Part shown: positions 8,075-47,674 of the stretch, piece after piece
How positions within the stretch are numbered: the first letter of the stretch is position 1
Layout: each line of letters starts with the position of its first letter
Assembly: GCA_965218975.1 (NCBI GenBank)
Contig: OZ244717.1
Location: 1,248,001 to 1,312,000 of the forward strand
Source of the DNA: Candidatus Oxydemutatoraceae bacterium
GTDB lineage: Bacteria > Pseudomonadota > Gammaproteobacteria > Poriferisulfidales > Oxydemutatoraceae
Direction of reading: 5' to 3'
Length of the DNA stretch: 64,000 nt
Made by a program: the position numbers and the translations under genes
The notes under the pieces: generated by a model
What the model was told of the DNA's origin: nothing
The model's input: only the letters and a program-made list of their open reading frames with translations
The model's database searches: none

Positions 8075-8641
8075 CGGCGGATTGTGCCGGATTGTCGGCA
8101 AAGTGCCTGTCGTCCATGACGCGACTGGGTTCTGTCAACAAGCTCCAGCCCCGACGTCCTTGTCGGGTCGTTCACCGCTGAAAACCAATTGGTTTTCCGG
8201 GCGCGTCTCACCCATGACGAGACTTGGTTCTGTCAATGAGCGCCAGCCCTGACGTCCTTGTCGAGTCGTTCGCCGCTGAAAACCGATCGATTTTCCGGGC
8301 GCGTCTCACCCTGCGCCAGGCAGAATTTCGGCAGCTTTGGCAAATCTCGGCAGCAGTAAAATCTTTGAGCTGATGAAACCGTTTTGTGTTTGTTGCCGTG
8401 TTGTCGGCGGATTGTGCCGGATTGTCGGCAAAGTGCCTGTCGTCCATGACGCGACTGGGTTCTGTCAACAAGCTCCAGCCCCGACGTCCTTGTCGGGTCG
8501 TTCACCGCTGAAAACCGATCGGTTTTCCAGGCGCGTCTTACCCATGACGAGACTTGGTTCTGTCAATGAGCACCAGCCCGACGTCCTTGCCGGGTCGTTT
8601 GCCGCTGAAAACCGATCAGTTTTCCGGGCGCGTCTCCCTGC
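8075..8641 (+). repeat. Four copies (8075-8213, 8214-8314, 8373-8543, 8544-8641) of a hairpin-rich 100-170 bp repeat
   Basis: Shared core GGTTCTGTCAA...GACGTCCTTG...GAAAACC....GGTTTTCC...GCGCGTCT. Confidence 0.9.
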
Positions 8642-8714
8642 CCGAGTGTCCGCACGATTGCGCGCCTGATCGCGGATGCGCCGGATAAAATGCGCTGTAT
8701 TCCGCAGCGGCTGA

Positions 8715-9188
8715 ATGCCAAAGGACAAACAAAACGACCGTTTAAGCGCCGTTGCAGGGCACGCAAGCCGAAACACTTCAAAGCACAGTAATCCGGGGCA
8801 TTGCATCGCCCTGGATACGATTGTGCGTTATCAGCACGGAGTGCGCCGCCACGTCTTAACGGCCATCGATGTCTATACCCGAATGGCAATAGCAACGGCA
8901 ACCAACCGCTGTAACAGCTGCAACGCAGCCGCATTCCTGCGCCTGACCCTGGCGGTGCTGCTGCAACCGGTAAAATATATTCTGACGGACGGCGGTAGTG
9001 AGTTTCAAGGACAGTTTGCTCGGCTCATCCGGGAATCACCCGTGATTGAGCAGTGGCTGACCTATCCCAAGTGTCCAAAAATGAACGCGCACATCGAGCG
9101 CTTCAACCGCACCGTCCAAGAAGATTGTATCGATCATGCAGAAGACCTGCTATTCGCCGATACGGAAGCATTCAATGACTGGTTATGA
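8715..9188 (+). pseudogene. IS481-like transposase, integrase core (rve) fragment
   Basis: IALDT, AIDVYTR, TDGGSEF, MNAHIERFNRTVQE DDE motifs; N- and C-termini cut off by repeat insertions. Confidence 0.85.
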
Positions 9189-9465
9189 AACCGTTTTGTG
9201 TTTGTTGGTGGATTTTCGGCGGATTGTGCCGGATTGTCGGCAAAGTGCCTGTCATCCATGACGCGACTGGGTTCTGTCAACAAGCTCCAGCCCCGACGTC
9301 CTTGTCGGGTCGTTCACCGCTGAAAACCAATTGGTTTTCCGGGCGCGTCTCACCCTGCTCATCCATGACGCGACTGGGTTCTGTCAACAAGCTCCAGCCC
9401 CGACGTCCTTGTCGGGTCGTTCACCGCTGAAAACCGATCGGTTTTCCGGTCGCGTCTCACCCTGC
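9185..9465 (+). repeat. Two further copies (9185-9358, 9359-9465) of the hairpin-rich repeat
   Basis: Near-identical to the 8373-8543 copy. Confidence 0.9.
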
Positions 9466-9574
9466 ACCGTCCTCATGCCGACAACGGACAGAAAGCACCG
9501 ATCCGAATGTTACTGCCGAACGCTTCCCCCGAAGCCCTTCAAAAATCCTATTTAGAGTGGCATCGTACAGCGCC

Positions 9575-9603
9575 TTGCATCTCGATAGAATTTAGGTTAT
9601 CTT
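9575..9603 (+). promoter_or_regulatory. Candidate sigma70 promoter upstream of leuA
   Basis: TTGCAT-N17-TATCTT. Confidence 0.55.
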
Positions 9604-9805
9604 AAAAAGATGATTAGACAATCAAACACCTTATTCTTTTTTTCGCAGAGTCCTTATTGTTTTCTGCGCTGTTTTCTGCGCACAGGATTACGACTGCCGC
9701 GGTGAGCGGTAGCTAAGAATAGCCGGCGGGCTTACACGTAAAATAAATACCCTTATTTTTTATTATCCAAGATGCCACACTTACAGTGTGGGCTGCTTAC
9801 AACAG

Positions 9806-11353
9806 ATGAAAGATAAAAGCAAACTAATTATTTTCGATACGACATTGCGCGATGGCGAGCAAAGCCCCGGTGCTTCAATGACAACCGAAGAGAAGCTACG
9901 TGTTGCTAAAATGTTGGAGCGAATGCGTGTAGACGTGATTGAAGCAGGTTTTCCGATTGCAAGCGGAGGAGATTTTGAAGCGGTTTGTCGAATCGCCGAG
10001 GAAATAAAAGACAGTAGAGTCTGCGGCCTTGCACGTGCATTAGATAAAGATATTGACAGTGCGGGACAGGCGTTGTCGGCAGCGGCGGCGCCTCGGATAC
10101 ATACCTTTATAGCAACATCAGATATTCATATGAAGAAAAAGCTCTGTATGACAAAGGAACAAGTGGTTGAGCGAGCGATTGCTTCTGTAAAAAAGGCAAG
10201 AAATTATACCGACGATGTGGAATTTTCCCCCGAAGATGCCGGACGCTCGGAAATTGATTTTCTATGCTATGTGATTGAAGCGGTGATTTCTGTCGGCGCG
10301 ACGACGATCAATATTCCGGATACGGTTGGCTACAGCATACCGGTGCAATTCGGCGCGATGATTAAAAATTTGATTGAGAAAGTGCCTAATTCCGACCGAG
10401 CTGTTTTTTCCGTGCATTGTCACAATGATTTAGGGCTAGCAGTTGCCAATTCTTTAGCAGCGGTTATGAACGGTGCACGTCAAGTCGAATGTACTATTAA
10501 CGGAATCGGAGAACGTGCCGGCAATGCCGCACTTGAGGAAGTTGTAATGTGTGTGAAAACGCGACAGGACATTTTTACTTGCGATACCAATATTGATACT
10601 CAGCATATTGTTTCGGCTTCCAAGTTAATTTCCAGTATCACCGGCTTCCCAGTGCAACCGAACAAAGCGGTGGTTGGTGCGAATGCGTTTGCGCATGAAT
10701 CGGGTATTCATCAGGATGGCGTTATTAAACAGCGTGAGACTTATGAGATTATGCGTGCCGAAGATGTTGGTTGGAATGAAAACCGTATTGTACTTGGCAA
10801 GCATTCGGGGAGACATGCTTTTCGGTTACGTCTTCAGGAATTAGGTATAGACCCCACAGATGAAGAGCTCAACAATATTTTCGTACGGTTTAAAGAGTTA
10901 GCAGATAAGAAACATGAAATTTATGATGAAGATTTACAAGCGCTTGTTTCAGAAGCAGGGTTTGACCGCGCATTTGAGCGTTATGATTTGGTTTCTATCA
11001 AAGTAACTGCGGAAACCGGTAAGACTCCCGATTCAACGGTGACATTGAGTATCAACGACAGAACACAAAGTTCAAGTGCTCCGGGAAGCGGCTCGGTTGA
11101 TGCAACATTCAAGGCAATTGAATCGTTGGTGGATAGTAACAGCGAATTGTTGCTTTATTCGGTTAATAACATCACGACCGGCACCGATTCGCAGGGAGAG
11201 GTTACCGTACGTCTGGGTAGAAACGGACGTATTGTTAATGGCTTAGGTGCTGATACTGATATTGTGATCGCTTCGGCGAAAGCTTATGTCAACGCATTAA
11301 ACAAATTAGAGAGCAATGTAAACCGAAGGCATCCCCAACGCGGTGATGTTTGA
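9806..11353 (+). CDS. leuA: 2-isopropylmalate synthase
   Basis: [38 protein letters not shown]; ATG 9806 preferred. Confidence 0.97.
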
Positions 11354-12071
11354 TTACTCTAAGAGGCGATTGCTTTATTTACATAAGATGGGTATTCCAT
11401 TTTATATCCGCAAAAACCTTACTTTGGCAGCTAAACAAAAGATACAGCCAATATCATCTTGGCAAGAACAAAGGCCAATGAATGATTCCGCGAAACAAGA
11501 CGGTTTACCTACGATATGGTTACAATTGTATTCGGAAATAAAGAAATGTACCAACTGCGCACTGCACCAGCGGCGCACTCAAGCGGTGCCCGGAGTCGGT
11601 GATATTCATGCCGACTGGATGCTCATAGGCGAAGCGCCAGGATTCGAAGAGGATAAAAAAGGCGAGCCGTTTGTCGGTCGCGCCGGACGGCTGCTAAATA
11701 AAATGCTGGCGGCAATCGGCCTTGATCGACGACAAGTATATATTACCAATGTTGTGAAGTGTCGCCCCCCGGAAAATCGCAACCCGCGTCCTGAAGAGAC
11801 GACTGCATGTGAAGATTATTTGCATCGGCAAATTCAAATGGTGAAGCCTAAAATTATTTTAGCGCTCGGCAGGATTGCTGCAAATGCATTATTAAATAGT
11901 AGCGCTCCGGTCGGGAAGTTACGCGGACGTGTTTATTATTATCAAGAATTAAAACTACCTATTGTGATCACTTATCATCCGGCATATCTGTTACGTTCTC
12001 CGCAGCAAAAACGCGCCGCATGGGATGACCTTAAGTTAGCGTGTAGGACAATCGGAATGGAAATATCATGA
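11343..12071 (+). CDS. Family 4 uracil-DNA glycosylase (Fe-S)
   Basis: [29 protein letters not shown] motifs. Confidence 0.93.
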
Positions 12072-12556
12072 GTGCGCTAGCTAGGGATATTCATGTCAAA
12101 GTTCGGCGAATGGCGGCGGAGGATTTACCCGCGGTTATGGATATTGAGAGGCGCGGTTATGAGTTTCATTGGAGCACGATTAACTTCAAAGAATGTTTGA
12201 CAACAGCTTGTGAGAGTATCGTTTTATTGTTAAATGATGAGATTATCGGTTACGGTATTATGATGATTGCGGTTGACGAATGTCATATTCTGAATGTATG
12301 TATTGATCCTGATTTTCAAAGGCAAGGTTATGGTTGCGCGCTATTACAAGAAATGATTGTGCATGCGATCGTTCTAGGCGCCGAATATGCGATTCTTGAA
12401 GTACGCTCGTCTAATATGCCCGCAATTAGCATGTATCAGTCTGAAGGCTTTGAACAAATCGGGTTGCGCCGCAAATACTATCCTGATTATGAAGGACGTG
12501 AAGATGCGTTGGTTTTTATGCGTCAATTGAAACCTTTATACGGAATGGAAGATTAA
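12068..12556 (+). CDS. rimI: Ribosomal protein S18 N-acetyltransferase
   Basis: GNAT motif QRQGYG, LEVRSSN, RRKYY, EDA. Confidence 0.92.
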   Translation: MSALARDIHVKVRRMAAEDLPAVMDIERRGYEFHWSTINFKECLTTACESIVLLLNDEIIGYGIMMIAVDECHILNVCIDPDFQRQGYGCALLQEMIVHAIVLGAEYAILEVRSSNMPAISMYQSEGFEQIGLRRKYYPDYEGREDALVFMRQLKPLYGMED

Positions 12557-12584
12557 CCAAAAAAAGAAAATTCTAGCATGGGCA

Positions 12585-13793
12585 ATGTACGACTGGGCAA
12601 ATTCAGCATTTGCCGTCGTTGTCCTATCGGGTTTTTTCCCCATTCTATATCGAGATTACTGGGCTGAGTCGCTTGCAAGCAAGGATGTTACCACCTCGTT
12701 GGCTATCGCGAATTCAACCAGTGGTATTCTGTTGATGCTGCTGTCGGTTTTCTTGGGTGCGATTGCTGATGTCGGCAATCGACAAAAACTTTTTTTAATC
12801 GTATGGATGAGTATAGGTGTTGGCGGCACGTTTGCGTTGGGAGCTGTGGCCGCCGGCGAGTGGATGTTAGTGCTAATTGTGTATGCGGTAGCAACCCTGT
12901 CGTTTATGATCGGCAATATATTTTATGACGCGATGATTGTTGATGTGAGCATTCCCGCGGAACGAGAACGGGTTTCATCGCTAGGTTATGCCGTGGGTTA
13001 TTTAGGAGGTGGTTTGTTGCTTGCCGGGATGAGTGCGCTTGTTTTATTCGCTGATCAAGTCGGTTTTTCAAGCGGAAAAAACGGACAAGTTTCGGCGATG
13101 CGCCTGAGTTTTTATGTAACAGGAATCTGGTGGTTGGTATTCACTCTGCCGTTAATTTTATTTATCCCAAATCGGAGACGAACCAGGATTGATTTCAAAG
13201 CGGCAGTGCATCGTTTTTTAAGCACCTTCCGCCTGCTTTCCGGACATTCAAATACCAAATGGTTTTTGCTCGCTTATTGGTTGTATATCGACGGCGTTGA
13301 TACTGTAATTCGGATGGCGGTTGATTACGGCAAAGTACTAGGTTTTTCATCCGGAGATTTAATTACCGCTCTATTGCTCGTACAATTTATCGGATTTCCG
13401 GGAACTTTGATATTCGGATTGATCGCTGAAAAAATTGGCGCTAAGCGCGCTGTTTTGTTCGCCGTCATTGGGTATGTAGGGATCTGCTTTTTTGGAGCTC
13501 TGGTTAAATCGTTAACCGGGTTTTATATGTTAGCGATAATGATTGCCCTCTTACAAGGCGGGATACAAGCGCAAAGCCGTTCGATTTTTTCAAAGTTGAT
13601 ACCGGTTAAAAATGCCGCTCAATTTTTCGGCCTATATAATTTGCTGGGGAGGTTTTCGGTAGTGGTCGGTCCTCTGCTGCTGAGTTTGGTCGGTGCGCTA
13701 ACGGACAATCCGCGTTTGGGTATTCTGTCGATTGTAGTGCTGTTTATTTTGGGAGGAATAATACTGTCACGTGTATCGGAGGCAAAAATTTAA
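12585..13793 (+). CDS. MFS transporter (UMF1/Atg22-like)
   Basis: MYDWANSAF, GYAVGYLGG, YWLYIDGV, SRS motifs; multiple TM segments. Confidence 0.88.
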   Translation: MYDWANSAFAVVVLSGFFPILYRDYWAESLASKDVTTSLAIANSTSGILLMLLSVFLGAIADVGNRQKLFLIVWMSIGVGGTFALGAVAAGEWMLVLIVYAVATLSFMIGNIFYDAMIVDVSIPAERERVSSLGYAVGYLGGGLLLAGMSALVLFADQVGFSSGKNGQVSAMRLSFYVTGIWWLVFTLPLILFIPNRRRTRIDFKAAVHRFLSTFRLLSGHSNTKWFLLAYWLYIDGVDTVIRMAVDYGKVLGFSSGDLITALLLVQFIGFPGTLIFGLIAEKIGAKRAVLFAVIGYVGICFFGALVKSLTGFYMLAIMIALLQGGIQAQSRSIFSKLIPVKNAAQFFGLYNLLGRFSVVVGPLLLSLVGALTDNPRLGILSIVVLFILGGIILSRVSEAKI

Positions 13794-13882
13794 GATCGAA
13801 TAATGAATTACCTTGAGCCTAGTTTAAAATAAGTCTGTGTAGCACTCGTTTGAATTTGCCTAAGCTTGCTAAGATCGATGGT

Positions 13883-16576: not shown

Positions 16577-16611
16577 GTTATAATGACAGGGAACTGAGAG
16601 ATTAGGCGTGT

Positions 16612-22789: not shown

Positions 22790-22874
22790 GCCGATGTGGT
22801 GGAACAGGTAGACACGCTGTCTTGAGGGGGCAGTGGCTTCGGCCGTGCCGGTTCGAGTCCGGCCATCGGCACCA
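22790..22874 (+). tRNA. tRNA-Leu (GAG)
   Basis: GCCGATG/CATCGGC acceptor stem, CTGTC-TT-GAG-GG-GGCAG anticodon arm, long variable arm, GTTCGAGTC, CCA. Confidence 0.96.
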
Positions 22875-23024: not shown

Positions 23025-23101
<77 letters not shown>

Positions 23102-23229: not shown

Positions 23230-23510
23230 TGTACGATGCCACCCTGGTAGGATTCTTGCAGGGTGAGACGCGCCCGGAAAACCGAACGGTTTTCAGCGGC
23301 GAACGACCCGACAAGGACGTCGGGGCTGGGGCTCATTGACAGAACCAAGTTGCGTCATGGACGACGTGTACTTTGCTAATAATCCGGCACAATCCACCGA
23401 CAACCCTGCTACCAAACACAAAAAGGTTTCAAATATTTCTGAGCTTATGCAGCATACCGGTTACCTTTTCGAGTCGTGCCGTGAGTCCCGTATGTATATG
23501 ACACTATGCA
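23230..23510 (-). mobile_element. Internally deleted IS481-like element carrying one copy of the hairpin repeat (23258-23431)
   Basis: TGTACGATGCCAC right end at 23230; left-end homology to 7776 at 23452-23510 and to 47274 at 23432-23451. Confidence 0.8.
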
Positions 23511-24106
23511 GTCTGCATCAGGTTCAGGATGCCCTGCAAGTTCCTAACATGTAGCTCAAGTGTGTTATTGCCTATCCGAAATTGTGATGGGAAGTTGATT
23601 GCTAATCGCCATTCTTTTTCGCCTGCAAACTCGCGAGGTTTAGAAAAGTACTTGCGGTTCCATGATTCGCTAGGCCCAGGATCAGTTTCAAGCTGTTCGA
23701 CCTTGCCGTACTCAATTTTTTGGAAGCTTATATGGCTCCCTTTTACTATGGAGCAAATATTTTCGACTCGTTTCTCCAGTTCGGTTAGACCCGAAATCTC
23801 GAAAATATATTTTCCAAATTTTGTTAACGGAATTTCACTAAAGCTCAGCATGAAAAACGGTATGATCGGGACGTCACTGTCGTCATCAAGATCATGACAG
23901 ATTTGTCCATTGGGCAATTTATATGATCCGATCCCTTCTGAAGGGTCTGCAGACAAATCTTCCCCAGGTTCACGAAAATACCTGGGCGATCGGAACCAAA
24001 GTATTCCTTTCAGATGATTGTAGAGTGCCTCTCTACTATTAGTTGTCCGGAAAAGAGTGGCCGGAAGTTCGGTCATACTTCTTTTGCTGTGGTTGGCGAT
24101 ATTCAT
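23504..24106 (-). CDS. Hypothetical protein (weak DUF2971-like K...F..E.EWR motif)
   Basis: 200-aa ORF; YFSKPREFAGEKEWRL; stop codon lies in the IS end. Confidence 0.6.
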   Translation of the reverse strand: MNIANHSKRSMTELPATLFRTTNSREALYNHLKGILWFRSPRYFREPGEDLSADPSEGIGSYKLPNGQICHDLDDDSDVPIIPFFMLSFSEIPLTKFGKYIFEISGLTELEKRVENICSIVKGSHISFQKIEYGKVEQLETDPGPSESWNRKYFSKPREFAGEKEWRLAINFPSQFRIGNNTLELHVRNLQGILNLMQTA

Positions 24107-37739: not shown

Positions 37740-37742
37740 GCA

Positions 37743-37964: not shown

Positions 37965-39092
37965 ATGGCTGATCCAATAAAAAACATCTTTATAAGCCAT
38001 ATTCATGAGGAGGAGGATGAAGGTCTCAACAAACTCAAGAATTTGATCAAAGATAAAGAAATGATTCCCCAGGACTATTCAATCAATGAAGAGTGCATCA
38101 AGTCACGTATTCTGCAATCCGGCGCATTGATTGTTTATATCTCCCCTAAAACCAAGGAAAGCTAGATTGTCAACTGGGAAATTGAGTATGCCCACAGACA
38201 AGGTAAAAGAATTGTAGGGGTCTGGGCACAAGATGAAGCTGGCTGTGAGGTCCCGGAAGCATTGGACAAATATGCTGATGCCGTAGTTGGCTGGGCAGAT
38301 AACCGTACAGATAACCATATCATTAAAGCTATAAACGGAAGTATTGACGTCTGGGAAAATCCGAATGGCGCAAAATGCGCGCCACGGGATATTGACGGCC
38401 CGGAAAATCCGGACGGTACAAAATGCGCGCCCCACGAGATATCGAGCGATATAAATGCTAATGTGAGACTATTTTCTTATATTGTCACTGATGACTATGG
38501 CTTCGCCCCAAACCCTTTTTATGGGGTATGTACGCTGGCCACCTGCAAACCAGAAATTCGGAAAGAGGCCTCTGTCAGAGACTGGGTAATTGGTACTGGT
38601 AGCAAGCGCAAATGCAAACAAGGACGCCTCGTTTATGTTATGCGTGTGACGGAGACAATGACATTTAATGAATACTGGAAAGATGATCGGTTTCAACGAA
38701 AAAAGCCAAACTTGAGAGGAAGTTGGAAACAAGCATCTGGTGACAACATCTACTTCTGGGATGATAAGAAGTGGCAGCAACAGAAATCTTACCACGGTTG
38801 CGATGATGTTAAGCACGACACACAGACTAATAGGGTGCTGCTTAGTACGAAGAAGTATGCGTATTGGGGCGGCTCAGGGCCAAAAATACCTAAAGAGTTT
38901 CGTGACTATAACGGGGTTGATATCTGCACTGGCCGAGGTTGAAAATATAAGTTTTCTAAAGCGTTGGTCAATGACTTTCTCACTTGGTTGTGTTATCAGA
39001 TGTGTCATCTGGATAAAAAAGGCTACCTTGGTACACCCTCGGACTGGCCCTGTTGCCAAAGACCGGAAAAACGAATCGACTGTCAAGGGTGA
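37965..39092 (+). pseudogene. TIR-like (DUF1863/ThsB-type) domain fused in frame to Nmad2 domain, interrupted by TAG 38163-38165 and TGA 38940-38942
   Basis: NIFISH, LIVYISPKT, VNWEIEYA..GKRIVGVW; SYIV.DDYGFAPNPFYG.CTLATCKP.IR; one continuous frame. Confidence 0.8.
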
Positions 39093-39171
39093 GTTGCTTT
39101 TACGCAACTATATACGAGAAACCGAGCCGACAGACAGCTGACTCCCTAAGGATGATCTGCGCCCGGTTCTT

Positions 39172-40218: not shown

Positions 40219-40221
40219 GAC

Positions 40222-40872
40222 ATGAGACCGGCCCAATACGTGGGAGCATTGTGTGGGTTGAATTTTGAAAATACGTTTAATCCTTATTCAGACCGTTGTG
40301 TTGTTCACGACTTGGATGACGCACCGCGCAGTAGAGCACAGATGTTGCAATCCATGCTTGAGGTAGCAACAGAACAGGAAATTGATTCTCTCTGGATTGG
40401 ACGCGATCTGGGTCATCGCGGCGGCAGGAGAACAGGGCTTGCCTTCACAGATGATGTTCATATTCATGCTCACATTCGGCGGTGGGGTTTATCTATAAAT
40501 CATCGGCCAACGAGGGGGAAAGTGGTTATTGAGCGAACTGCGGCTGTCATCTGGCAGGCTCTTTCACGAGTTAACGCATCTGTCTTTCTTTGGAATGTTT
40601 TTCCACTACACCCCCACGAGCCTCACAACCCTTTCAGTAATCGCCCTCATAATTCTTGCGAGCAACGGTCCGGTGAGGAATTTCTCTCTCAACTTATTCT
40701 GCTGTTGAAACCGGATCAATTGATTGCAATAGGCAATGATGCAATGCAAACAGTGCTCCGCTTATGCGCTCGAGACAAAGTTATTCAAGTACGTCATCCC
40801 AGTTATGGTGGACAAACGCAATTTTTAGCGCAAATGCGTAAACTGTACGATCTGAATGGAAGTATTGTCTAG
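40222..40872 (+). CDS. Uracil-DNA glycosylase superfamily protein
   Basis: FNPY, GRDLG.RGGRRTGLAFTD, WNVFPLHPH, NR, RHPSYGG. Confidence 0.88.
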   Translation: MRPAQYVGALCGLNFENTFNPYSDRCVVHDLDDAPRSRAQMLQSMLEVATEQEIDSLWIGRDLGHRGGRRTGLAFTDDVHIHAHIRRWGLSINHRPTRGKVVIERTAAVIWQALSRVNASVFLWNVFPLHPHEPHNPFSNRPHNSCEQRSGEEFLSQLILLLKPDQLIAIGNDAMQTVLRLCARDKVIQVRHPSYGGQTQFLAQMRKLYDLNGSIV

Positions 40873-40882
40873 GACATTAACT

Positions 40883-41095
40883 TGTACTGTTCAGATACAT
40901 ACGGAACTCATGGCACGGACTCAAAAAGTGTCCGATATGCGGTATTGGCACATCGGTCATCGCATCAAAGGTTTCTATTGTAAAATGATCGTTTTAGCTC
41001 CAAAGATGGAGGCTATGATAACAACCGGTGCCAACAAGAGAAACACGATGCCTTCATTTTGGGAAGGTTGTAGCTTCCGGACATATTCAAGGTCA
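40883..41095 (+). mobile_element. Decayed left end and transposase N-terminus of IS481-like element
   Basis: Homologous to 7776-7985 (TGTACTGTTCAGATACAT...HIGHRIKGFY...FWEGC). Confidence 0.8.
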
Positions 41096-41366
41096 GCCGA
41101 CGATCAGTGCGATGTACTGAGCTACGAGACCACGGTCACCGCCAAAGTCACCGACACACATCCGGCTTCAATGTCGTTGATCCGGAATCCCGCTGGTACA
41201 GCATCTATGCGTTGGACGCTCTCGGCCAGATGATACACATCGCTCGTGACCAGATTGGAAGCGGTTTCAATATGATAAATTAACAATATGGGACGCTGCA
41301 TGACACCGGTATATATTGTCGTTTAGAGAAAACGGCGAATTGTAGAGTTACAAGGTCAAAGCGACT

Positions 41367-42299
41367 ATGGAATTGAAGCCTTCTATAACCTCACCTGCTA
41401 GTGAACCATCCGAATGTTTCCGGAATACCGACGGTGGGTGGGCATTGCCGCTAGAAATCGGAACGCAGCGAATATGTCGGTGCAAAGTCAACCATATCAA
41501 TTGTTTGAGCGCCAAGGAGTGGCTGAAGAATCAGTTGGGAGTATGGAGGTTCAACTACGAGGACAGGGACATCCGCGACAAGGCAGTTCATCCGGCCACG
41601 TACCCTATCGCTCTTGCACGGCGCGTCATAGAGCAATTTACCCATGAAGGCGAATTAGTGCTTGATCCGTTCGTGGGCAGCGGAACGTCGTTGCTGGCTG
41701 CGCAGGATACGAACCGGAATGCCGTCGGATTTAATTTGTCGTCAGCCTATGTGGACCTGTGCCGTAAAAGGACTGCGCAACAAAGCTTAGTTCAACATGC
41801 TCAGCAAGTTGCAGTGCAAGATGATGCTCGGAACATACCGAAATATCTGGCCGAGGAAACTGTCAGCCTCATCGTCACATCCCCGCCGTATGCTAATCTT
41901 CTGAATCGCAAGCGACAAAATAAATCCAGGCGCGACCGACGCAATGACCAGCTTGACAAGGTTGAGCAGTATTCGCAAGACCCGCGAGACTTAGGAACGA
42001 TGAACCTCGATTTGTATACGGAGAATATGGAAGCGATCTTTGCATCCCTGTTGCCGTTGCTTCGTCCGAAAGCGCATTGCGTTATTAATGTTCCTGATAT
42101 GTGGTGGGAGAATGAACGGATTACAATCCATGTTGCATTGATTGAAGAATTGCGCCGCTGCGGCTACGAACTTCGCAATATCATCATTTGGGATCGCACA
42201 AACATTGTAAATCGGATTGGAATCTTCGGTTGGCCGAGCAACTACATCACGATGGGCACCACATTCGAATATCTGTTGGATTTCTGGCGGCCGGAATGA
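41367..42299 (+). CDS. Orphan N4-C/N6-A DNA methyltransferase
   Basis: HPATYP, VLDPFVGSGT, IVTSPPY, IIWD. Confidence 0.88.
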   Translation: MELKPSITSPASEPSECFRNTDGGWALPLEIGTQRICRCKVNHINCLSAKEWLKNQLGVWRFNYEDRDIRDKAVHPATYPIALARRVIEQFTHEGELVLDPFVGSGTSLLAAQDTNRNAVGFNLSSAYVDLCRKRTAQQSLVQHAQQVAVQDDARNIPKYLAEETVSLIVTSPPYANLLNRKRQNKSRRDRRNDQLDKVEQYSQDPRDLGTMNLDLYTENMEAIFASLLPLLRPKAHCVINVPDMWWENERITIHVALIEELRRCGYELRNIIIWDRTNIVNRIGIFGWPSNYITMGTTFEYLLDFWRPE

Positions 42300-42396
42300 A
42301 TTATTTCACCAAAGCGCTCAGAAAGTTACGAAAGGCAGTAGCAAGCAATCCACAGGTGAGTTCAGAAGCGTAATAATTTCATAGGAATTACTATAA

Positions 42397-43662
42397 ATGT
42401 TCAGATTTATACATGCTGCAGACATCCACCTCGATAGTTCACTACACGGCTTGGAGCGATATGAAGGAGCTCCAGTAGATGAGATCCGAAGCGCCACCCG
42501 CCGAGCTTTTGATAATTTAATCAAACTTGCAATTGATGAAGAAGTGGCATTTGTGCTGCTGGCCGGGGACTTGTACGACGGCGACTGGAAGGATTACAAC
42601 ACGGGGCTCTATTTTGTAGAACGTATGAGTAGGTTGCGAGAAGAAGATATCCGCGTTTTCATTGTGGCAGGAAACCATGATGCTGCCAGCCAAATCACCA
42701 AACACCTTCAATTACCTGAAAACGTAACTCTATTTTCAACCAAGAATCCGGAAAGGATTGACCTAGATGACCTAAATGTAGCTGTATATGGGCAGGGCTT
42801 CGCAAAACGGGCAGTAATGGACGATCTTTCACAGGCATATCCACAAGGGAACTCACAACTCTTTAATATTGGCCTGCTGCACACTTGCCTAGAGGGTAAG
42901 GTAGGCCATGAGCCCTATGCGCCTTGCACTGTAGAAGGGCTACGATCCAAAGGATACCAGTACTGGGCTCTGGGTCATGTCCATAAACGGGAGGAGGTAA
43001 GTCAGGATCCATGGATTGTATTTCCTGGGAATATCCAGGGACGACACATCCGTGAGGCAGGTCCAAAGGGCTGTACCTTGGTTACAGTTGAAAACGGAGA
43101 GATTGTGGAGCTGAAACACTGTGAACTGGATGTGATGCGCTGGACTCTGTGTGAACTTGATGTTTCTGTTAGTGAGACAGTGGATGATGTCTATGAGCAA
43201 GTTCGTAAAGGACTGCAGACTGAATTAGATGCTGCCGAAGGGAGGCCAATTGCTGTTCGCTTAGTCTTACAAGGAGAATGTTCTGCCCATTCAGCATTAC
43301 AAGCGGGTCGGGACCGCTGGGTACAGGAGTATCGTGCCCTGGCAACTGGACTCGGTGGAGCAGGTGTCTGGCTTGAGAAGGTTATCATCAAGGTAACACC
43401 GTCTGTTTCCACTGATGTGATTCTTGCGCGCAATGATGCGTTGGGGGGCCTAATGCGTACTATCCGAGATATGAAGCTGGATGCCACGGCTTTAGAGGGT
43501 CTCGCCGATGAGATATCCGCACTTCGACAGAAACTTCCTGCTGAACTGTTGGGAGGCGATGACCCCTTTGATCCTACCAAACCGGAATTACTTAAAGATG
43601 CCCTAGAGGATATCAAAGAGCTTCTCGTTAACCGCCTGTTGTCCACGGAGAAAGGGCCATGA
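42397..43662 (+). CDS. Mre11/SbcD-like metallophosphoesterase (YhaO type)
   Basis: HAADIHLD, AGDLYD, GNHD, LLH, WALGHVH, FPGNIQGRH. Confidence 0.92.
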   Translation: MFRFIHAADIHLDSSLHGLERYEGAPVDEIRSATRRAFDNLIKLAIDEEVAFVLLAGDLYDGDWKDYNTGLYFVERMSRLREEDIRVFIVAGNHDAASQITKHLQLPENVTLFSTKNPERIDLDDLNVAVYGQGFAKRAVMDDLSQAYPQGNSQLFNIGLLHTCLEGKVGHEPYAPCTVEGLRSKGYQYWALGHVHKREEVSQDPWIVFPGNIQGRHIREAGPKGCTLVTVENGEIVELKHCELDVMRWTLCELDVSVSETVDDVYEQVRKGLQTELDAAEGRPIAVRLVLQGECSAHSALQAGRDRWVQEYRALATGLGGAGVWLEKVIIKVTPSVSTDVILARNDALGGLMRTIRDMKLDATALEGLADEISALRQKLPAELLGGDDPFDPTKPELLKDALEDIKELLVNRLLSTEKGP

Positions 43663-46600
43663 TGATTCATGAGTTGTGTCTTGCCGCATTCGGGCCCTTT
43701 ACCGATAAAGTATTGGTTTTTGATGGGGCAAGGCTCCATATTGTCTACGGACCTAATGAGGCAGGGAAGAGTGCTGCTCTTCGGGGTTTGAAAGCCCTGT
43801 TGTATGGCATAGAAGAACGTACTCTCGACAACTTCCTTCACGTCAACGACAAGCTCCGTATACATGGTTATTTACGGAAAGCTAATGGACATGAGCTTAA
43901 GTTGGTTCGGCGTAAAGGCCGAAAAAATACGTTATTAACTCTTGATGGTGAAGTACTTAGTGGTGAGGTGCTGGTACCCTTTCTTCATGGCGTTACTTCG
44001 GAGCTCTTCGAGACGCTTTTTGGGATTGATCACAGGGCATTGGTACAAGGGGGGCAAGAAATTCTTGAGCAGAAGGGAGAAGTCGGACAGGCACTTTTTT
44101 CGGCAGCGCTTGGCAGCCAAGCACACACTGTACTTGCACAACTGAATGAAGAGGCTGATGCTCTTTTTCGACCAAGGGGCTCAACACAGAAGATCAATTC
44201 AGCGTTAAAGTCGTATGCAGAATTTCGCAAGAAGATCAGGGAGCAATCCCTCTCATCCGGAAAATGGGATGAGCAACGCCATGTTTTGGAGCAAACGATG
44301 AAGGAACTGGAGAAAATTCAATCTCAACTAGCGGACAACAGGATTAAGGTAAACCATTTAAAGCGTATCCGGCGAGTTTTACCGAAACTTGCCAAGCGTC
44401 GTGAACTTCTTCAGAAATTGGAATTGTTAAAAGATGTCGTCCTCCTTCCGGATGATTTTTCAGGCCGTCGGCAAAGGGCAATGAATAAGTTGGAAACAGC
44501 TCAGGTCATAGTTGGGAAGGCAAGCCCTCGTCTCGAAGAATTGCAGGAACGGCTAGGAGGGTTATCAACAAACCAAGAATTGTTAGATCAGGCAGAAAAC
44601 ATTGAAGATCTACATGCGCGCCTTGGAGGTCATCGAAAAGCACAGCAAGACCGACCATATCTTGAATCAGAAGTCAAACAACTACTGACAGATACTGAAT
44701 CCATACTCAAAGAGATTCGTCCTGATCTCGAACTAAAGGATATCGAGGAATTACGTCCAGTATTAACTAGACGGCAGGCTATAACCAAGTTGGCCAGTAA
44801 GAATACCAGACTGAATGCTAGTATAGAACAGTTAGAGTCCAGTTTGCGTGAAACAGAAACGCGGTTGAGGAAAGCCCGCAAAGAGCGTGATGAGGTCCCC
44901 GCGTCAGGCTCTACAGACACATTGCATCGAACGATTGCAGCAGCTAGGAAACAGGGAGAATTAGATGCCTTGGTTAAATCCACTCAAGGTCAGCTTACAA
45001 GCCTGCAGACAGATTACACTGCTAGTCTCTCGCGACTCACGCTTTGGGATGGTGAATTGGAAGATTTAGCTGGTTTGAAGATGCCCAACCGAGAAAGCAT
45101 TAATCAATTTGAAAAGGTATCAGACAAAATTGAAAACAATTTTCAGCGGTTTGAAGAGAAGAGAAAAGAGACGATTAATTCCCTACAAAATATCTCGCAG
45201 AGACTTGATGAGATTGAGCGTATAGGGAAAGTACCTACGGAGGCAGCCCTCACTAATGCCAGATCCGAACGTGATCAGGTGTGGCAGTTGCTACGTCGGC
45301 AGTGGGTGGAAGGTGAAGACGTGTCAGCCGAGGCAAGTTATCACCAAGGTGAAGGAACATTGCCGGATGTATTCGAAAACCGGCTTGAAAATGCCGATGA
45401 AATGTCTGATCGTTTGCGCCGTGAAGCGGACCGGGTCCATGAATTGGCAAACCTTCAGTCCAAGCAGGAAGGTGGGCTAAGGCAAGTAGAGAAGATAGAC
45501 AAGCAGCTTGAGGCAACTACCGCCGAAAAGGACCAGCTTGTTACTGACTGGCAGCAATTGTGGACGCCTTGTCAGATTGTTCCGCGCAGTCCGCGTGAGA
45601 TGCGCGCTTGGCTGGATAATTTCGAAAAACTTCGTGAGCGGGTGGAACAGTTGAATTTGCTTCGCCAGAAAGTGAAAGAGCTTCAGCAAAATCGTAAGAT
45701 GCGTATCCAGCTGCTTAATGAGCAGTTAGCAGGGCTGGGAAGGGCGGGCTCGACGTCGGGGGAGCTTGAAACCGTACTCTTGGAATGCGAAACGTTTGCT
45801 AAACAGCTTGATGGTGCCAAACAGAAACGCGATTCGTTGGATAAGGAGGCCAAAGACCGGGAAATAACTGTTGAATCGTTGAGAGAAGAACATCGACTGG
45901 CAACCGAAAAGCTTGAAGCATGGAAGACGCAGTGGGGTGAGTTGATGCAGGGTCTTGGTCTGCAAAGCGAGACTTTACCATCAGAAGTTGACGATTTCAT
46001 TGATAAGGTCAAGGAATTATTCTCAAAACAGCACGAAGTAGAAAAACTGCGAATACGCATCAATGCTATCGACACAGATTCAACGTCTTTCTGCAGTCAG
46101 GTGAAGGTCATGGTTGCTACGATTGCCTTGGAACTTCTTAGTGATTTGTCTGCAGATGATGCCGTCATGCGTCTCAATTCGCTGTTATCGGAAAACCGAT
46201 CAAAACAAACAAAGCGACAACAGATTGAAGAGCAAGTTGAACAAGTGAAGCAGGAAATACAGGAGTCGAAAGGATCTATCCGTACTATGACGGATCTGCT
46301 GGATGCATTATGTGTAGAGGCGAAATGTGGTAACCACAATCAGCTAGAAGAGGCCGAACGCAGGTCGTCAGATCGTCTTAGAATCAAAGAGTCAATCAAT
46401 ACGGTTGAACAAGGGGTTCTGGAGACAGGCGAAGGTATAACCATTGCAGAGTTGGAGGCCGAAGTTGAAGGGATAAAACCGGATATGCTGCCCGGGCAAA
46501 TCAAAGAGTTGAATAATAAGATTGATAATGAACTCGAGCCAAAACGGACTGAACTGGCGGAGAAAAAGGGACGTGAAGAAAGGGAACTTGAGCGCATGGA

Positions 46601-47147
46601 TGGCAGTGATGACGTGGCGGAGCTTGCTGACCAAGCCCACGCTATCCTTGCCAATATTCGTTCAGAGGCTGAACGCTATATTCGAGTAAAACTCGCCAGA
46701 AAGATATTGTATGACCAGATTGAGCTTTATCGAAAAGAAAACCAAGGGCCGCTGGTCAAGCGTGCCAGTGAGCACTTTTCCAGACTGACGCTTGGGTCAT
46801 TTTATAGGCTCATTGCTGATATTAATGATAAGGATGAGCCTGTTCTTGCTGGGATCCGGTCAACTGGGAAGCAAGTATATGTGGAAGGAATGAGCACCGG
46901 AACTCGAGACCAGCTATATCTTGCATTGCGTTTGGCCTCACTAGAAAAATATATGGAAAGGTCCGAGTCGATGCCTTTCATTGTTGACGATATACTTGTG
47001 GACTTTGATGATGATCGTTCACAAGCAGCATTGAATTCCTTGGCGGAATTAGCTGAAAAGACACAAGTTATCCTATTTACTCATCACGTGCAGGTTGTTG
47101 AGCAGTCAAAGCAACTGAATGCGCCGGTACAGGTGCATGAGTTGTAG
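43659..47147 (+). CDS. Rad50/SbcC-like coiled-coil ATPase (YhaN type)
   Basis: GPNEAGKS, long coiled coil, MSTGTRDQLYLALRLA, IVDDILVDFDD, FTHH. Confidence 0.92.
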   Translation: MMIHELCLAAFGPFTDKVLVFDGARLHIVYGPNEAGKSAALRGLKALLYGIEERTLDNFLHVNDKLRIHGYLRKANGHELKLVRRKGRKNTLLTLDGEVLSGEVLVPFLHGVTSELFETLFGIDHRALVQGGQEILEQKGEVGQALFSAALGSQAHTVLAQLNEEADALFRPRGSTQKINSALKSYAEFRKKIREQSLSSGKWDEQRHVLEQTMKELEKIQSQLADNRIKVNHLKRIRRVLPKLAKRRELLQKLELLKDVVLLPDDFSGRRQRAMNKLETAQVIVGKASPRLEELQERLGGLSTNQELLDQAENIEDLHARLGGHRKAQQDRPYLESEVKQLLTDTESILKEIRPDLELKDIEELRPVLTRRQAITKLASKNTRLNASIEQLESSLRETETRLRKARKERDEVPASGSTDTLHRTIAAARKQGELDALVKSTQGQLTSLQTDYTASLSRLTLWDGELEDLAGLKMPNRESINQFEKVSDKIENNFQRFEEKRKETINSLQNISQRLDEIERIGKVPTEAALTNARSERDQVWQLLRRQWVEGEDVSAEASYHQGEGTLPDVFENRLENADEMSDRLRREADRVHELANLQSKQEGGLRQVEKIDKQLEATTAEKDQLVTDWQQLWTPCQIVPRSPREMRAWLDNFEKLRERVEQLNLLRQKVKELQQNRKMRIQLLNEQLAGLGRAGSTSGELETVLLECETFAKQLDGAKQKRDSLDKEAKDREITVESLREEHRLATEKLEAWKTQWGELMQGLGLQSETLPSEVDDFIDKVKELFSKQHEVEKLRIRINAIDTDSTSFCSQVKVMVATIALELLSDLSADDAVMRLNSLLSENRSKQTKRQQIEEQVEQVKQEIQESKGSIRTMTDLLDALCVEAKCGNHNQLEEAERRSSDRLRIKESINTVEQGVLETGEGITIAELEAEVEGIKPDMLPGQIKELNNKIDNELEPKRTELAEKKGREERELERMDGSDDVAELADQAHAILANIRSEAERYIRVKLARKILYDQIELYRKENQGPLVKRASEHFSRLTLGSFYRLIADINDKDEPVLAGIRSTGKQVYVEGMSTGTRDQLYLALRLASLEKYMERSESMPFIVDDILVDFDDDRSQAALNSLAELAEKTQVILFTHHVQVVEQSKQLNAPVQVHEL

Positions 47148-47273
47148 TCAAGCGGAATGAGGGATCTGAATGACAAACTATAAAGTGCATAAATGGATGT
47201 ACCAAAAAGCTTTTGATTAGGAACATGTGGTTGGAAGGACTCCAATGCTGGCGTTCCATTGTCTTCGCGAGGT

Positions 47274-47674
47274 TGTACAATGCATAAGCTCAGAAACATT
47301 TGGCATTCCTGCCGACAGGAGGTGTGGCCTTGCAAATCCGACATATAGGCTATCGAATCCGGGGTTTTACCGGATCGCTAAAATCGGGCATAGTTGGGAT
47401 ACTATGGCTTACGATGCAAAACAACGACTCAAAATTCTCACCTTTTGGCAAAATCACGGCACAGCGGCTGGACGAGACTTTGGTTCTGTCAACAAGCCCC
47501 AGCCCCGACGTCCTTGTCGGGTCGTTCGCCGCTGAAAACCGATCGGTTTTCCGGGCGCGTCTCACCCTGCACCGCCTTCATGCCGGCAACGGACAGAAAG
47601 CACCGATCCGAATGTTACTGCCGAACGCTTCCCTCGAAGCCCTTCAAAAATCCCATTTAGAGTGGCATCGTACA
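47274..47674 (+). mobile_element. Internally deleted IS481-like element with hairpin repeat (47471-47570) replacing most of the transposase
   Basis: TGTACAATGC ... GGCATCGTACA; HIGYRIRGF and AKQRLKILTFWQNHG N-terminus; tail near-identical to 9464-9569. Confidence 0.85.

Follow-up and report, generated by a model that had tools for sequence, protein, structure and literature searches.

A hairpin-forming repeat that probably arose within the transposase gene of an IS481-like element

The window (the whole 64-kb stretch of DNA that was analyzed) contains a hairpin-forming repeat of 98–171 bases, here called R, whose copies end alike, begin differently and lie within relics of an IS481-like insertion sequence. 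What is R, and how did it multiply inside another element? As the reference unit we took R1–171 (window 8373–8543), and a blastn comparison of this unit with the whole genome yielded exactly eight segments in the window:

8075–8213, plus strand: R33–171 (blastn)
8212–8311, plus strand: R72–171 (blastn)
8373–8543, plus strand: R1–171 (the blastn query unit)
8542–8635, plus strand: R72–166 (blastn)
9185–9355, plus strand: R1–171 (blastn)
9354–9462, plus strand: R64–171 (blastn)
23261–23431, minus strand: R2–171 (blastn)
47471–47567, plus strand: R76–171 (blastn)

The segments agree to within 3 nt with the eight copies claimed in a previous, sequence-only reading of this DNA, and the three hairpins named there (TGCCG-GATTGT-CGGCA, CCCGAC-GTCCTT-GTCGGG and GAAAACC-nnnn-GGTTTTC) are present. 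So, in seven of the eight copies, is the GATC or AATT palindrome center that it had described for most of them, the exception being the copy at 23261, which has GTTC. All eight window copies have the orientation of the host IS, as had been proposed, but this does not hold genome-wide: three loci carry R reversed inside the left part of the IS.

The host element and the arrays within it

The relics in the window and their parts are as follows:

7776–9569, plus strand: IS481-like relic of subfamily 1, 1794 nt (termini, TSD, rve and HTH_32 domains)
7905–8074, plus strand: transposase N-terminal (HTH) coding remnant, with its end ...APRKRRRR directly before the first array (ORFs, HTH_32/HTH_28 matches, homologue ORFs)
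8075–8311, plus strand: array at site 1, R33–171 and one 98-nt unit (blastn, ancestral piece M in other copies)
8313–8372, plus strand: transposase fragment B, native IS sequence coding for ...ANLGSSKIFEL (alignment with ..PNLGKEKVHVLL.. of intact homologues)
8373–8640, plus strand: array at site 2, the native (primary) site, R1–171 and one 97/98-nt unit (empty-site comparison, tandem repeat call)
8641–9184, plus strand: piece C, transposase catalytic-core remnant (rve match)
9185–9465, plus strand: array at site 4, R1–171 and one 107-nt unit (empty-site copies, tandem repeat call)
9466–9569, plus strand: piece D, transposase C-terminal remnant (..RPHADNGQK..) and right IS end (IS alignment)
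23230–23511, minus strand: MITE-like IS relic of about 280 nt (blastn, IS mosaic)
47340–47674, plus strand: short relic with the 5′ part of IS481 subfamily 2, R76–171 and the IS right end (blastn, subfamily-2 reference)

The relic at 7776–9569 has the ends TGTACAGTGCC... and ...GGCATCGTACA and is bordered by a 5-nt direct repeat, GCGCC (7771–7775 and 9570–9574). The best NCBIfam match of its 157-aa transposase fragment was NF033577 transpos_IS481 (77 bits, 1.4e-21), which falls below the 224-bit full-length cut-off because only a fragment is matched. R interrupts the transposase at several places, as had been noticed earlier; piece C is uninterrupted, and site 3 is therefore empty in this relic. 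The relic at 23230–23511 is composed of the IS left end A16–75 (23452–23511), about 20 nt that are similar to the left end of subfamily 2 (GCATAAGCTCAGAAATATT), R2–171 and a right end that reads TGCAAGAATCC...GGCATCGTACA, and its internal junction recurs at other loci, for example at genome 364900. The 5′ part of the third relic is seen from at least 47340, its right end stops at 47674, and the 3′ junction of its R segment is CTCACCC|TGCACCG.

Some short relics look MITE-like only because the IS ends were retained. R itself is not a MITE: it has no TIR, and its insertions replace 11–37 nt. That R lacks a TIR or TSD of its own had been observed in the window and was borne out, in that the insertions substitute target bases and duplicate no target.

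The host shows an IS481-profile rve transposase, terminal inverted repeats and a short target duplication, with exact 5-nt TSDs at 5 of 33 two-ended array-bearing IS copies, the window copy among them. What it lacks is an intact gene. No intact IS481 transposase gene was found in the genome, where the longest open frame with transposase homology is 246 aa (279473–280210), as compared with 305–386 aa in relatives.

Probable origin at site 2 and distribution in the genome

The native site indicates where R came from. R1–15 (ATGAAACCGTTTTGT = MKPFC) is transposase coding sequence, and the inserted part is R16–171. One IS copy (genome 210880–211480, minus strand) has kept the ancestral empty site 2, which reads KPFC-HRHQLL-CPSVRT in protein and AAACCGTTTTGC|CATCGCCACCAGCTGCTC|TGCCC in DNA. 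By this comparison, 18 nt (6 codons) of the HTH–DDE linker gave way, in frame, to R16–171 (156 nt, 52 codons); as the reading frame was kept, a one-unit element could still have encoded transposase. The translation of B and R1–15, ..ANLGSSKIFELMKPFC, matches ..PNLGKEKVHVLLxPWC.. in intact homologues, and the frame continues from R into CPSVRTIARL...DDE within the 246-aa open frame. Because the 5′ part of long copies is transposase coding sequence, the variable 5′ end is in part co-copied IS flank. These findings point, with moderate confidence in the whole explanation including the minisatellite spread considered below, to R being not a separate transposon but a hairpin-rich segment born in the transposase gene of one IS481 lineage.

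In the genome, a single contig of 2.08 Mb that is 99.4% complete, 324 R segments make up 164 arrays and 1.9% of the sequence, the arrays being spread over about 90 IS copies. IS481-like sequence adjoins 152 of the 164 arrays (144 on both sides, eight on one side). By eye, most of the remaining 12 could be placed within short remnants of the IS; the exceptions number about three (393256; 1035022 and 1035324). The claim that R is confined to IS481-like relics, for which a genome-wide tabulation had been proposed as the check, was thus upheld in large measure.

At genome 1034790–1035700 the exit point of R (the place where its copies end) joins back to CCCTGC in non-IS host DNA, with the result that a 302-nt tract of host DNA plus R is tandemly triplicated. 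A tandem duplication of host DNA at the R exit point is a signature of replication or repair and not of transposition.

No match to R was found in 18 other genomes of the family or 52 other genomes of the order. The exact pattern CCGCTGAAAACC-N4-GGTTTTCCGGGCGCG, which misses diverged relatives, gave no match in GTDB representative genomes and JGI metagenome contigs. Nor was R described among the matches listed for the literature on IS481, tandem repeats, transposase, symbionts and sponges, as judged from titles and the opening parts of abstracts, and three R motifs searched as words in the literature returned no paper.

Secondary sites, junctions and array variation

Secondary copies of R are found at no fewer than four other IS positions and next to R itself. 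Each replaces about 11–37 nt and, unlike the copy at site 2, they are not in frame. We compared empty and filled forms for sites 1, 3 and 4 and for the reversed insertion in the IS left part. At site 1 the 5′ junction lies within an 8-nt microhomology, CGGCGGAT (8075–8082), the 3′ junction is CTCACCC|TGCGCC, and roughly 37 nt of the gene's ancestral sequence (piece M) were displaced. The array at site 4 stands in place of 22 nt that read GGAGTATTTAGCCTGGTATAAG where the site is empty, and its 5′ junction introduces a TGA stop, such that the ORF terminates ...EAFNDWL. Site 3 exhibits two different 5′ junctions and one shared 3′ junction. Taken over all secondary copies, 5′ junctions are variable and lie in 2–8 nt of microhomology, and upstream B and R1–15 were sometimes carried along, B as B26–60 or B31–60 in the genome-wide mosaic. 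The 3′ junction is always 0–4 nt after ...CTCACCC, in C/TG(C) microhomology, and every one of the seven targets known in their empty form contains CTG(C).

The fixed 3′ end and variable 5′ end recognized in the window hold across the genome: 280 of the 324 segments (40 nt or longer) stop at R171 to the base, 310 reach at least R164, and there are 38 different starts. Because the query goes no further than R171, what matters is where homology to the native downstream flank breaks off. It breaks off at R171, and at least 10 different right-hand contexts follow CTCACCC; of 286 units, 166 continue with TG and 82 with the next 98-nt unit. First junctions of R with new right flanks number at least seven (B1, C342, D1, D16, D70, the reversed IS left part and host DNA), all at R171 to R174.

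Could the tandem copies be an assembly artifact of a single repeat? The arrays are repetitive, and contigs from sequencing runs of four different studies are short, none spanning the window stretch. Yet the junction forms recur in these contigs, the empty site 4 and the site-3 variant among them, neighboring units in the window arrays differ (88–96% matches), unique IS segments separate the arrays, and the genome is one contig. We regard an artifact as extremely improbable.

As in a minisatellite or VNTR, the units are arranged head to tail, vary in copy number (one to seven segments per array, with periods of 98, 107 and others) and are locally homogenized. Units at different sites in one IS copy are 93.7% identical, as against 91.4% for units at the same site in different copies, a difference reached by none of 1000 permutations, and 17.7% of adjacent unit pairs are at least 98% identical, as against 2.1% of units from different loci. 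This greater likeness within a copy could partly reflect IS sublineages and not copying in cis. At the same time, complex architectures (A315|R46, C305|B26 and C544|R1) recur at many loci with different flanks, and in one IS copy site 2 is empty and sites 3 and 4 are filled. A tree of the backbone (203 nt, C342–544, 32 copies), meant to tell inheritance from independent insertion, was poorly resolved, with none of 29 inner branches at an SH-aLRT of 95 or more. On this tree the site states required 21 changes, against a mean of 20 in shuffles, and hence were not clustered; the haplotypes of units, sorted by site and rank, were so mixed that they outlined no lineage specific to a site.

Hairpins, enzymes and modes of spread

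The hairpin stems are nearly invariant (P3 is intact in 254 of 286 aligned units and P2 in 198), and the palindrome center is GATC in 146 units and AATT in 77, together 223 of 286, with AATC in six and GATT in three. The GATC and AATT centers, both self-complementary, differ at two symmetric positions, and a switch between them with so few intermediates hints at a constraint or symmetrizing process beyond a template-switching model. These features, and the better folding of some units relative to shuffled sequences (z = −2.4 and −3.1), would fit a functional module under selection, be it a structured RNA within the transcript of the transposase or a palindromic site for a dimeric protein (a transposition regulator, or a methylase of the Dam type at GATC). 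The sequence-only reading had offered a structured RNA carried by the IS as one possibility, and this was not supported. No Rfam family matched R at the gathering threshold over the whole window or at a relaxed threshold over 7700–9700, where the only match, RsmY (E = 3.5), was at chance level. Compensatory changes are almost absent, one P3 double change being common to four units and single unrepaired P2 mismatches occurring in 70, and RNAalifold on 242 distinct units gave a weak consensus with no two-sided changes. Conservation is uniform across paired and unpaired columns, and folding relative to shuffles is modest, with one window unit at z = +0.25. Since, in addition, all host IS copies are dead and array length and position vary freely, a selected function is in our view quite improbable.

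Which enzyme, if any, might have moved R? In the complete genome we found no match to RVT_1 (PF00078; the control responded in 3 of 14 genomes), Y1_Tnp (PF01797, IS200/RAYT; control in 6 of 14) or the IS110 DEDD transposase (PF01548; control in 7 of 14). IS91-type Y2 HUH (PF04986, NF033538) gave no match either, but here the controls were silent everywhere as well, so an enzyme of this kind may still exist. Three candidates were set aside accordingly: a PATE derived from IS200/IS605 or a REP/RAYT system (no Y1 HUH transposase and, with 38 different 5′ starts, no fixed left end), a retroelement-derived repeat spread by target-primed reverse transcription (TPRT; no reverse transcriptase) and a site-specific IS110/IS1111 element without TIR or TSD (no DEDD transposase). 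An enzyme that once acted on R could have been lost. Of the recombination-, RNA- or HUH-based routes suggested earlier, recombination is favored by the microhomology at both junctions, the replaced bases and the within-copy likeness, whereas the RNA and Y1 HUH routes are disfavored by the negative searches. The description of R as a non-autonomous hyperparasite of the IS is apt as to non-autonomous but was not supported as to a separate hyperparasite with an RNA or HUH route of its own.

The explanation that we favor, with moderate confidence and on the evidence of sequence comparisons, is that R is an IS-borne hairpin minisatellite spread by template switching in cis, unequal exchange, IS transposition and conversion between copies. 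R16–171 replaced 18 nt in the HTH–DDE linker of one IS481 lineage with the frame kept, and was then copied to at least four other IS positions and beside itself; arrays expanded and contracted locally, and the family reached about 90 IS copies. Copying may have occurred by template switching in cis while DNA was being replicated or a break repaired (through slippage or a process akin to SDSA/MMBIR). The newly copied unit is predicted to fold into a closing helix (GACGCG/CGCGTC or GAGAC/GTCTC) plus two hairpins, and its 3′ end would detach 4–7 nt past the last helix and re-anneal at the next CTG(C), the constant exit point being due, we infer, to this folding. Microhomology used purely at random would not, on its own, lead one to expect a single exit point, for which folding would be an explanation. 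Spread through the genome was presumably passive, by IS481 transposition in trans from a now-lost master copy and by gene conversion among IS copies. The 5-nt TSDs at 5 of 33 copies and the recurring complex architectures are in favor of passive spread, and the unclustered site states, together with the copy in which site 2 is empty and sites 3 and 4 are filled, fit conversion. A bolder version of this scheme, which we hold only tentatively, would make R a self-propagating, enzyme-free DNA segment and a "template-switch parasite" of the transposon: its fold would eject the copying strand at ...CACCC (4–7 nt past the closing helix), and re-priming at a nearby CTG(C) would paste R and a variable upstream flank into neighboring DNA, with spread borne by the IS.

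Two other histories deserve consideration. The unusual junctions may each have arisen once in a few master elements, with the remainder the work of IS481 transposition, unequal crossing-over among units and deletions from one array to another. In that case the 3′ boundary would be the edge that the first insertion left and passed on, and its reuse would follow from the fact that homologous exchange between copies of R goes no further than their homology. The same composite architectures at many loci, the TSDs around array-bearing copies, near-identical neighboring units and deletions that join the site-1 array straight to C342 or D, and so resemble inter-array recombination, all accord with such a history. 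But homologous exchange cannot make the first R171 junction with each new right flank, of which at least seven exist (R171 to R174), and the two site-3 variants are not derivable from each other by deletion, so we judge it unlikely. Alternatively, R could be what remains of a genuine mobile element, non-autonomous and copied from the 3′ end by a trans-acting enzyme now lost, either TPRT-like, by reverse transcription of an IS transcript primed at a CTG(C) target, or by one-ended rolling-circle transposition like that of IS91/ISCR, with an origin-like 3′ end by a CTGC target. A fixed 3′ end, 5′ truncation, co-copying of the 5′ flank, microhomology and small target deletions are typical of these processes as well. 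R indeed has one 3′ terminus against 38 starts, upstream IS flank (B, R1–15) taken to sites 3 and 4, junction microhomology with 11–37-nt target deletions, a site 3 with the same 3′ junction and two 5′ junctions, one reverse-orientation insertion, and CTG(C) in the empty target at all seven known sites. The complete genome, however, holds no match to RVT_1, Y1 HUH or IS110, and R carries neither a poly-A nor any other tail. The independent events are all located within or next to IS sequence (a few percent of the genome), though the targets share only CTG(C), and units are most alike within one IS copy instead of being drawn from a common pool. Moreover, the tandem duplication of host DNA at the same exit point is not a transposition product, and no match to R turned up in the other genomes and metagenomes searched. 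A mobile-element relic thus strikes us as a decidedly remote prospect, if less so than a selected function.

Under the favored explanation, a small structured segment for which no dedicated machinery is detectable can spread through an entire transposon family and come to make up about 2% of a small, symbiont-type genome. The R junctions form a natural catalog (one fixed exit, variable entry, microhomology and replaced bases) that makes structure-determined template switching testable as a copy-and-paste route in bacteria. They also counsel caution, in that a fixed 3′ end and a truncated 5′ end need not imply reverse transcription or rolling-circle transposition. For annotation, R arrays should be masked as IS-internal repeats, not called as genes, sRNAs or CRISPR-like arrays. 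New here are the MKPFC coding origin, the empty ancestral site, the fixed exit with target replacement, the host-DNA duplication and the within-copy likeness of units.

R invites comparison with several known systems. BOX elements have the module structure boxA–boxB(n)–boxC. Passages of PMC10969869 describe pneumococcal BOX elements as modular hairpin repeats of bacteria, and Rickettsia palindromic elements (RPEs) as insertions of about 150 nt that lie in frame in many unrelated genes and add a peptide segment. Like BOX, R is a weakly coding or non-coding modular repeat of narrow lineage with a head, variable tandem hairpin units, a tail and no enzyme of its own. But BOX is dispersed and intergenic, whereas R lies almost only inside one IS family, takes its head from transposase coding sequence and has one fixed 3′ junction with target replacement. 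With RPEs it shares its palindromic character, a length of about 150 nt and insertion into a protein gene with the frame kept (site 2, 52 codons for 6); unlike them, it is in frame in one gene only (the IS transposase linker), later copies being of the same element family and often out of frame or making stops. The Wolbachia VNTR-105/141 repeats are tandem units of about 100 nt with internal palindromes and copy numbers that vary between loci. R differs from them in that its 164 arrays are carried by a multicopy IS and its higher-order units take in fragments of genes.

Hairpins can, in one model, induce polymerase pausing and dissociation. PMC3597517 and PMC11790251 deal with replication slippage and with template switching mediated by microhomology (FoSTeS/MMBIR, serial replication slippage). 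R resembles these processes in its 2–8-nt microhomology junctions, templated insertions that cost the target little sequence, a tandem duplication bounded by short direct repeats (the 302-nt case) and occasional strand inversion, but it reuses one donor boundary in every event, which is unusual there and which a structure-determined exit would account for. TPRT (with 5′ truncation as in LINEs and SINEs) and IS91/ISCR one-ended transposition are both 3′-anchored copy mechanisms. R is like them in its fixed 3′ (or origin) end by a short conserved target, variable other end, co-mobilized flank and lack of TIR and TSD, the end ...CTCACCC|TG(C), seen in 166 of 286 units, being a resemblance only to that of IS91/ISCR. 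Unlike them, it has no reverse transcriptase that we found and no tail, is restricted to cis and duplicates host DNA at the same point. Further candidate ideas for the CTG(C) junction are priming by DnaG primase at CTG and a tyrosine-recombinase (Xer or integron-like) crossover at CTGC.

Copies of R and their host element

We searched the whole genome (one contig of 2,081,000 nt, 47.7% GC) by blastn, using as query the reference copy of the hairpin repeat R (R1-171). Eight segments were recovered in the window, and they coincide with the eight copies picked out by the sequence-only reading.

Segments of R in the window (blastn)
8075-8213: R33-171
8212-8311: R72-171
8373-8543: R1-171, the reference
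8542-8635: R72-166
9185-9355: R1-171
9354-9462: R64-171
23261-23431, minus strand: R2-171
47471-47567: R76-171

The arrays in the window have periods of 98, 97, and 107 nt with matches of 88-96% (Tandem Repeats Finder), and all three of the hairpins described earlier, TGCCG-GATTGT-CGGCA, CCCGAC-GTCCTT-GTCGGG, and GAAAACC-NNNN-GGTTTTC, were found in the sequence. The host, at 7776-9569, is an IS481-like element: it carries rve and HTH_32 domains, its top NCBIfam match is transpos_IS481, its termini read TGTACAGTGCC... and ...GGCATCGTACA, and GCGCC lies on both sides of it as a 5-nt direct repeat.

Genome-wide, R segments of at least 40 nt numbered 324, in 164 arrays, and R totaled 39,513 nt (1.9% of the genome). 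Each end piece of the IS gave 92 blastn HSPs. A mosaic parse yielded 135 loci. Of these, 92 combine IS pieces with R, 6 have R alone, and 37 have IS pieces alone, the last being mainly fragments of less than 300 nt; R was present in 58 of the 62 loci holding at least 300 nt of IS pieces. Of the 164 arrays, 144 had same-strand IS sequence at most 120 nt away to the left and the right, another 8 had it on a single side, and the remaining 12 lacked it. When the flanks of these 12 were read, most proved to sit in minimal IS relics, such as a ~20-nt IS left end (GCATAAGCTCAGAAACATT), the left part in reverse, or a right end, and only the array at 393256 and the pair at 1035022 and 1035324 were not assigned to relics. 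The near-complete confinement of R to IS relics is thus borne out. The 18 other genomes searched from the family and the 52 from the order yielded no match to R, and an exact-pattern search of GTDB representative genomes and JGI metagenome contigs came back empty.

Several minor features were seen in passing. A string resembling the IS right end (AAATCGTACA) lies at window 7757-7775, 6 nt ahead of the IS left end, and such a string adjoins an IS left end again at genome position 1862885 (ATCGTACAAGCACC^TGTATAG, the caret here and below marking a junction); IS copies may have inserted directly beside older IS ends. Window 40892-40978 (87 nt, 78% identity to the left-end region at 7786-7872) is probably a further decayed IS481-like left end without R. 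The window also holds two tandem copies of a 48-nt unit unrelated to R (38342-38437, 79% identity), two tRNA genes (22790-22871 and 23025-23098) directly upstream of a MITE-like relic (23230-23511), and a bacterial class A RNase P RNA (52988-53338). R shows an orientation bias: with the leading strand judged from cumulative GC skew, whose minimum lies near 0.27 Mb and whose maximum lies near 1.50 Mb, the sense strand of R is on it at 61 of the 97 R-bearing loci.

Origin of R in the transposase gene

Intact homologues from relatives (~50% identity) read ..PNLGKEKVHVLLxPWC(6 aa)CP..RTIARLIADAPDKMR. Piece B of the element, a transposase fragment (window 8313-8372), translates together with R1-15 to ..ANLGSSKIFELMKPFC, and piece C begins CPSVRTIARLIADAPDKMR; as judged by translation, the 5' part of R is transposase coding sequence. 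One IS copy (genome 210880-211480, minus strand) retains an empty form of site 2, the native site of R, which reads AAACCGTTTTGC^CATCGCCACCAGCTGCTC^TGCCCAAGTGTCC and encodes KPFC-HRHQLL-CPSV. It follows that R16-171 (156 nt, 52 codons) took the place of 18 nt (6 codons). The replacement, which kept the frame, lies in the linker that joins the HTH domain to the catalytic domain, and at genome 279473-280210 an open frame of 246 aa continues without a break out of R through CPSVRTIARL to the DDE core. Given the preserved frame and this open frame, an element with a single R unit could still have encoded transposase, which would resolve the paradox of a "dead" element present at ~90 copies. The genome today contains no intact transposase, the longest homologous open frame being that of 246 aa as compared with 305-386 aa in relatives. 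At the level of sequence, then, R is shown to have arisen inside the transposase gene.

A common exit point and its junctions

The 3' end of the segments fell at R171 in 280 of 324 and at R164 or later in 310, whereas starts occurred at 38 positions, a variety that stems partly from internal deletions in the G/T-rich head. Because the query itself stops at R171, we inspected the sequence after CTCACCC in 286 aligned units.

Sequence following CTCACCC
TGCTCGTC: 26 units, 107-nt unit
TGCACCG: 39 units, site 4
TGACGGAC: 22 units, site 3
TGCGCCA: 28 units, piece B
TGCCCGAG: 14 units, native flank
ATGACG: ~80 units, 98-nt unit
GGCAACGG: 7 units
TGCAAGAA, TGCCGATA, GTTTTGTG, and others: smaller numbers

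At least 10 right flanks are therefore joined 0-4 nt from one point. The asymmetry between a fixed 3' end and a variable 5' end, as noted by the sequence-only reading, is real, and there is one exit point. At all seven sites with a known empty form, (C)TG(C) was already in the target before insertion.

The IS mosaic has a regular grammar, its successive pieces and arrays running A, array, B-R..., C1-305, array, C342-544, array, D, where A is the left part and D the C-terminal transposase remnant with the right end.

Secondary insertions of R
Site 4, empty: GGTTATG^GGAGTATTTAGCCTGGTATAAG^CTGCACCG
Site 4, filled: GGTTATG^AAACCG...CTCACC^CTGCACCG; 22 nt of target replaced; microhomology ATG left, CTGC right
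Site 3, variant 1: 5' junction of C305 to B in 8-nt homology CCTGCGCC (left); 36 nt replaced
Site 3, variant 2: C ~330 joined to R ~57; 11 nt replaced; left microhomology of 2-3 nt
Site 1: 5' junctions in CGGCGGAT/GCCGGAT (R31-33 or R46); CCTGC microhomology right; ~37 nt (piece M) replaced
Reversed insertion, three loci: R ~8-171 inverted in the IS left part; at most 11 nt replaced

The insertion at site 4 creates a TGA stop. Both site-3 variants, for which the window copy served as the empty reference, share the 3' junction CTCACC^CTGACGG; variant 1 brings along B and R1-15, and deletion cannot turn either variant into the other. The empty form of site 1 is piece M of other copies, and the reversed insertion, too, adjoins TGC. 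The secondary insertions are shown by these alignments to be of a replacement type, with microhomology.

Host DNA was caught up in the same kind of event. At genome 1034790-1035700 a truncated relic (R ~90-171 and the IS right end) is embedded in ordinary host DNA rich in AT, which 233 nt upstream reads GTCCCTGCGCGAGC. The locus holds three 302-nt tandem copies, each made of 233 nt of host sequence and an R remnant of 69-80 nt, and every junction has the form CTCACCC^TGCGCGAGC and falls at a CCCTGC microhomology, of which the upstream host sequence has one occurrence. This triplication is a classic backward slip between CCCTGC microhomologies, one that leaves R at the usual exit point and lands in non-IS DNA; template switching makes such a product, and transposition does not.

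Misassembly of the tandem copies had been raised as a concern. Junction forms of the IS and of R recur in contigs from public runs of four studies, among them site-3 variant 2 and the unfilled site 4 (with 22 letters separating 9187 from 9462), which argues against a private assembly artefact; these contigs are short, none spans an array, and they bear on junctions rather than unit counts.

Mode of spread and related systems

Units from different sites of one IS copy were 93.7% identical, as compared with 91.4% (same site) and 91.1% (different sites) between IS copies, an excess reached by none of 1,000 label permutations. Likewise, 17.7% of 79 adjacent unit pairs were at least 98% identical versus 2.1% of 4,927 pairs from different loci, and some arrays contain identical neighbors. 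Copying and homogenization were therefore local, in cis, rather than supplied by a pool shared across the genome. Unit haplotypes a and b are mixed over all sites, site states do not cluster on the (poorly resolved) backbone tree, and the IS copy with empty site 2 has arrays at sites 3 and 4 all the same; taken together, these observations point to exchange from one IS copy to another. Of 33 two-ended copies, all array-bearing, 5 are flanked by exact 5-nt TSDs; the others are presumably scrambled or decayed. R is shown to have multiplied passively with the IS.

We propose that the secondary events would be template switches in replication or break repair, with the exit point set, perhaps, by the fold of the freshly copied unit and transposase supplied in trans by a master element carrying one unit in frame. 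That R is instead a retro-type or rolling-circle hyperparasite seems to us improbable. Such a parasite requires an enzyme since lost, and it leaves the cis restriction and the duplication of host DNA unaccounted for. RVT_1, Y1_Tnp, and IS110 had no match in the 99.4%-complete genome, although controls responded, which speaks against an RNA-based or Y1 HUH route and an adjacent RAYT, IS200, IS110, or RT gene; IS91-type profiles also had no match, with controls equally silent. Of the routes proposed earlier for a hyperparasite, the recombination-type one is in keeping with the replacement junctions and the cis likeness; an RNA or HUH route of its own is not supported by the enzyme searches.

The consensus unit folds as a three-way junction: two hairpins sit within a closing helix, which is GACGCG/CGCGTC in type-a units and GAGAC/GTCTC in type-b units, and the common exit point lies 4-7 nt past this helix. 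Folding z-scores were -2.4 and -3.1 for two type-a units and +0.25 for a type-b unit of the window. Stem P3 is intact in 254 and stem P2 in 198 of 286 units; P2 carries 70 single unrepaired mismatches, and only one compensated P3 variant was seen, in 4 units. Rfam had no match for R. Evidence for selection on an RNA formed by R is weak, and the idea of a structured RNA carried by the IS gains little from these mixed results. At the center of the palindrome GAAAACC/GGTTTTC (8189-8192 and 9331-9334 in the window, and likewise in every other unit), 146 units have GATC and 77 have AATT; single-step intermediates are rare (AATC 6, GATT 3), and asymmetric forms include GTTC (26) and GGTC (13). This symmetric switch at two positions is not accounted for by template switching.

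Among the kinds closest to R, in the passages and abstracts consulted, are BOX elements and other modular repeats with hairpins, palindromic RPEs that sit in frame (PMC10969869), and microhomology-mediated template switching, as well as endosymbiont hairpin VNTRs. Confinement to an IS, a head derived from transposase coding sequence, and a single fixed exit junction occur together in none of these. A literature search on the R motifs found no description, and R is undescribed in the titles and abstract openings of the matches listed for IS481, tandem repeats, transposase, symbionts, and sponges. The present analysis adds where R came from, its empty sites, the rule for its junctions, the duplicated host DNA, and the test for cis action.

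Finally, we note a second IS481 subfamily, also dead, at genome 205900-206850 (minus strand) and 1204330-1205420 and at window 47340-47470. Its DNA is dissimilar to that of the first, piece A aligning over only 38 nt, and its product is ~50% identical to the G001 homologue. Its R arrays are joined to subfamily-1 transposase pieces, and thus the two subfamilies have recombined.
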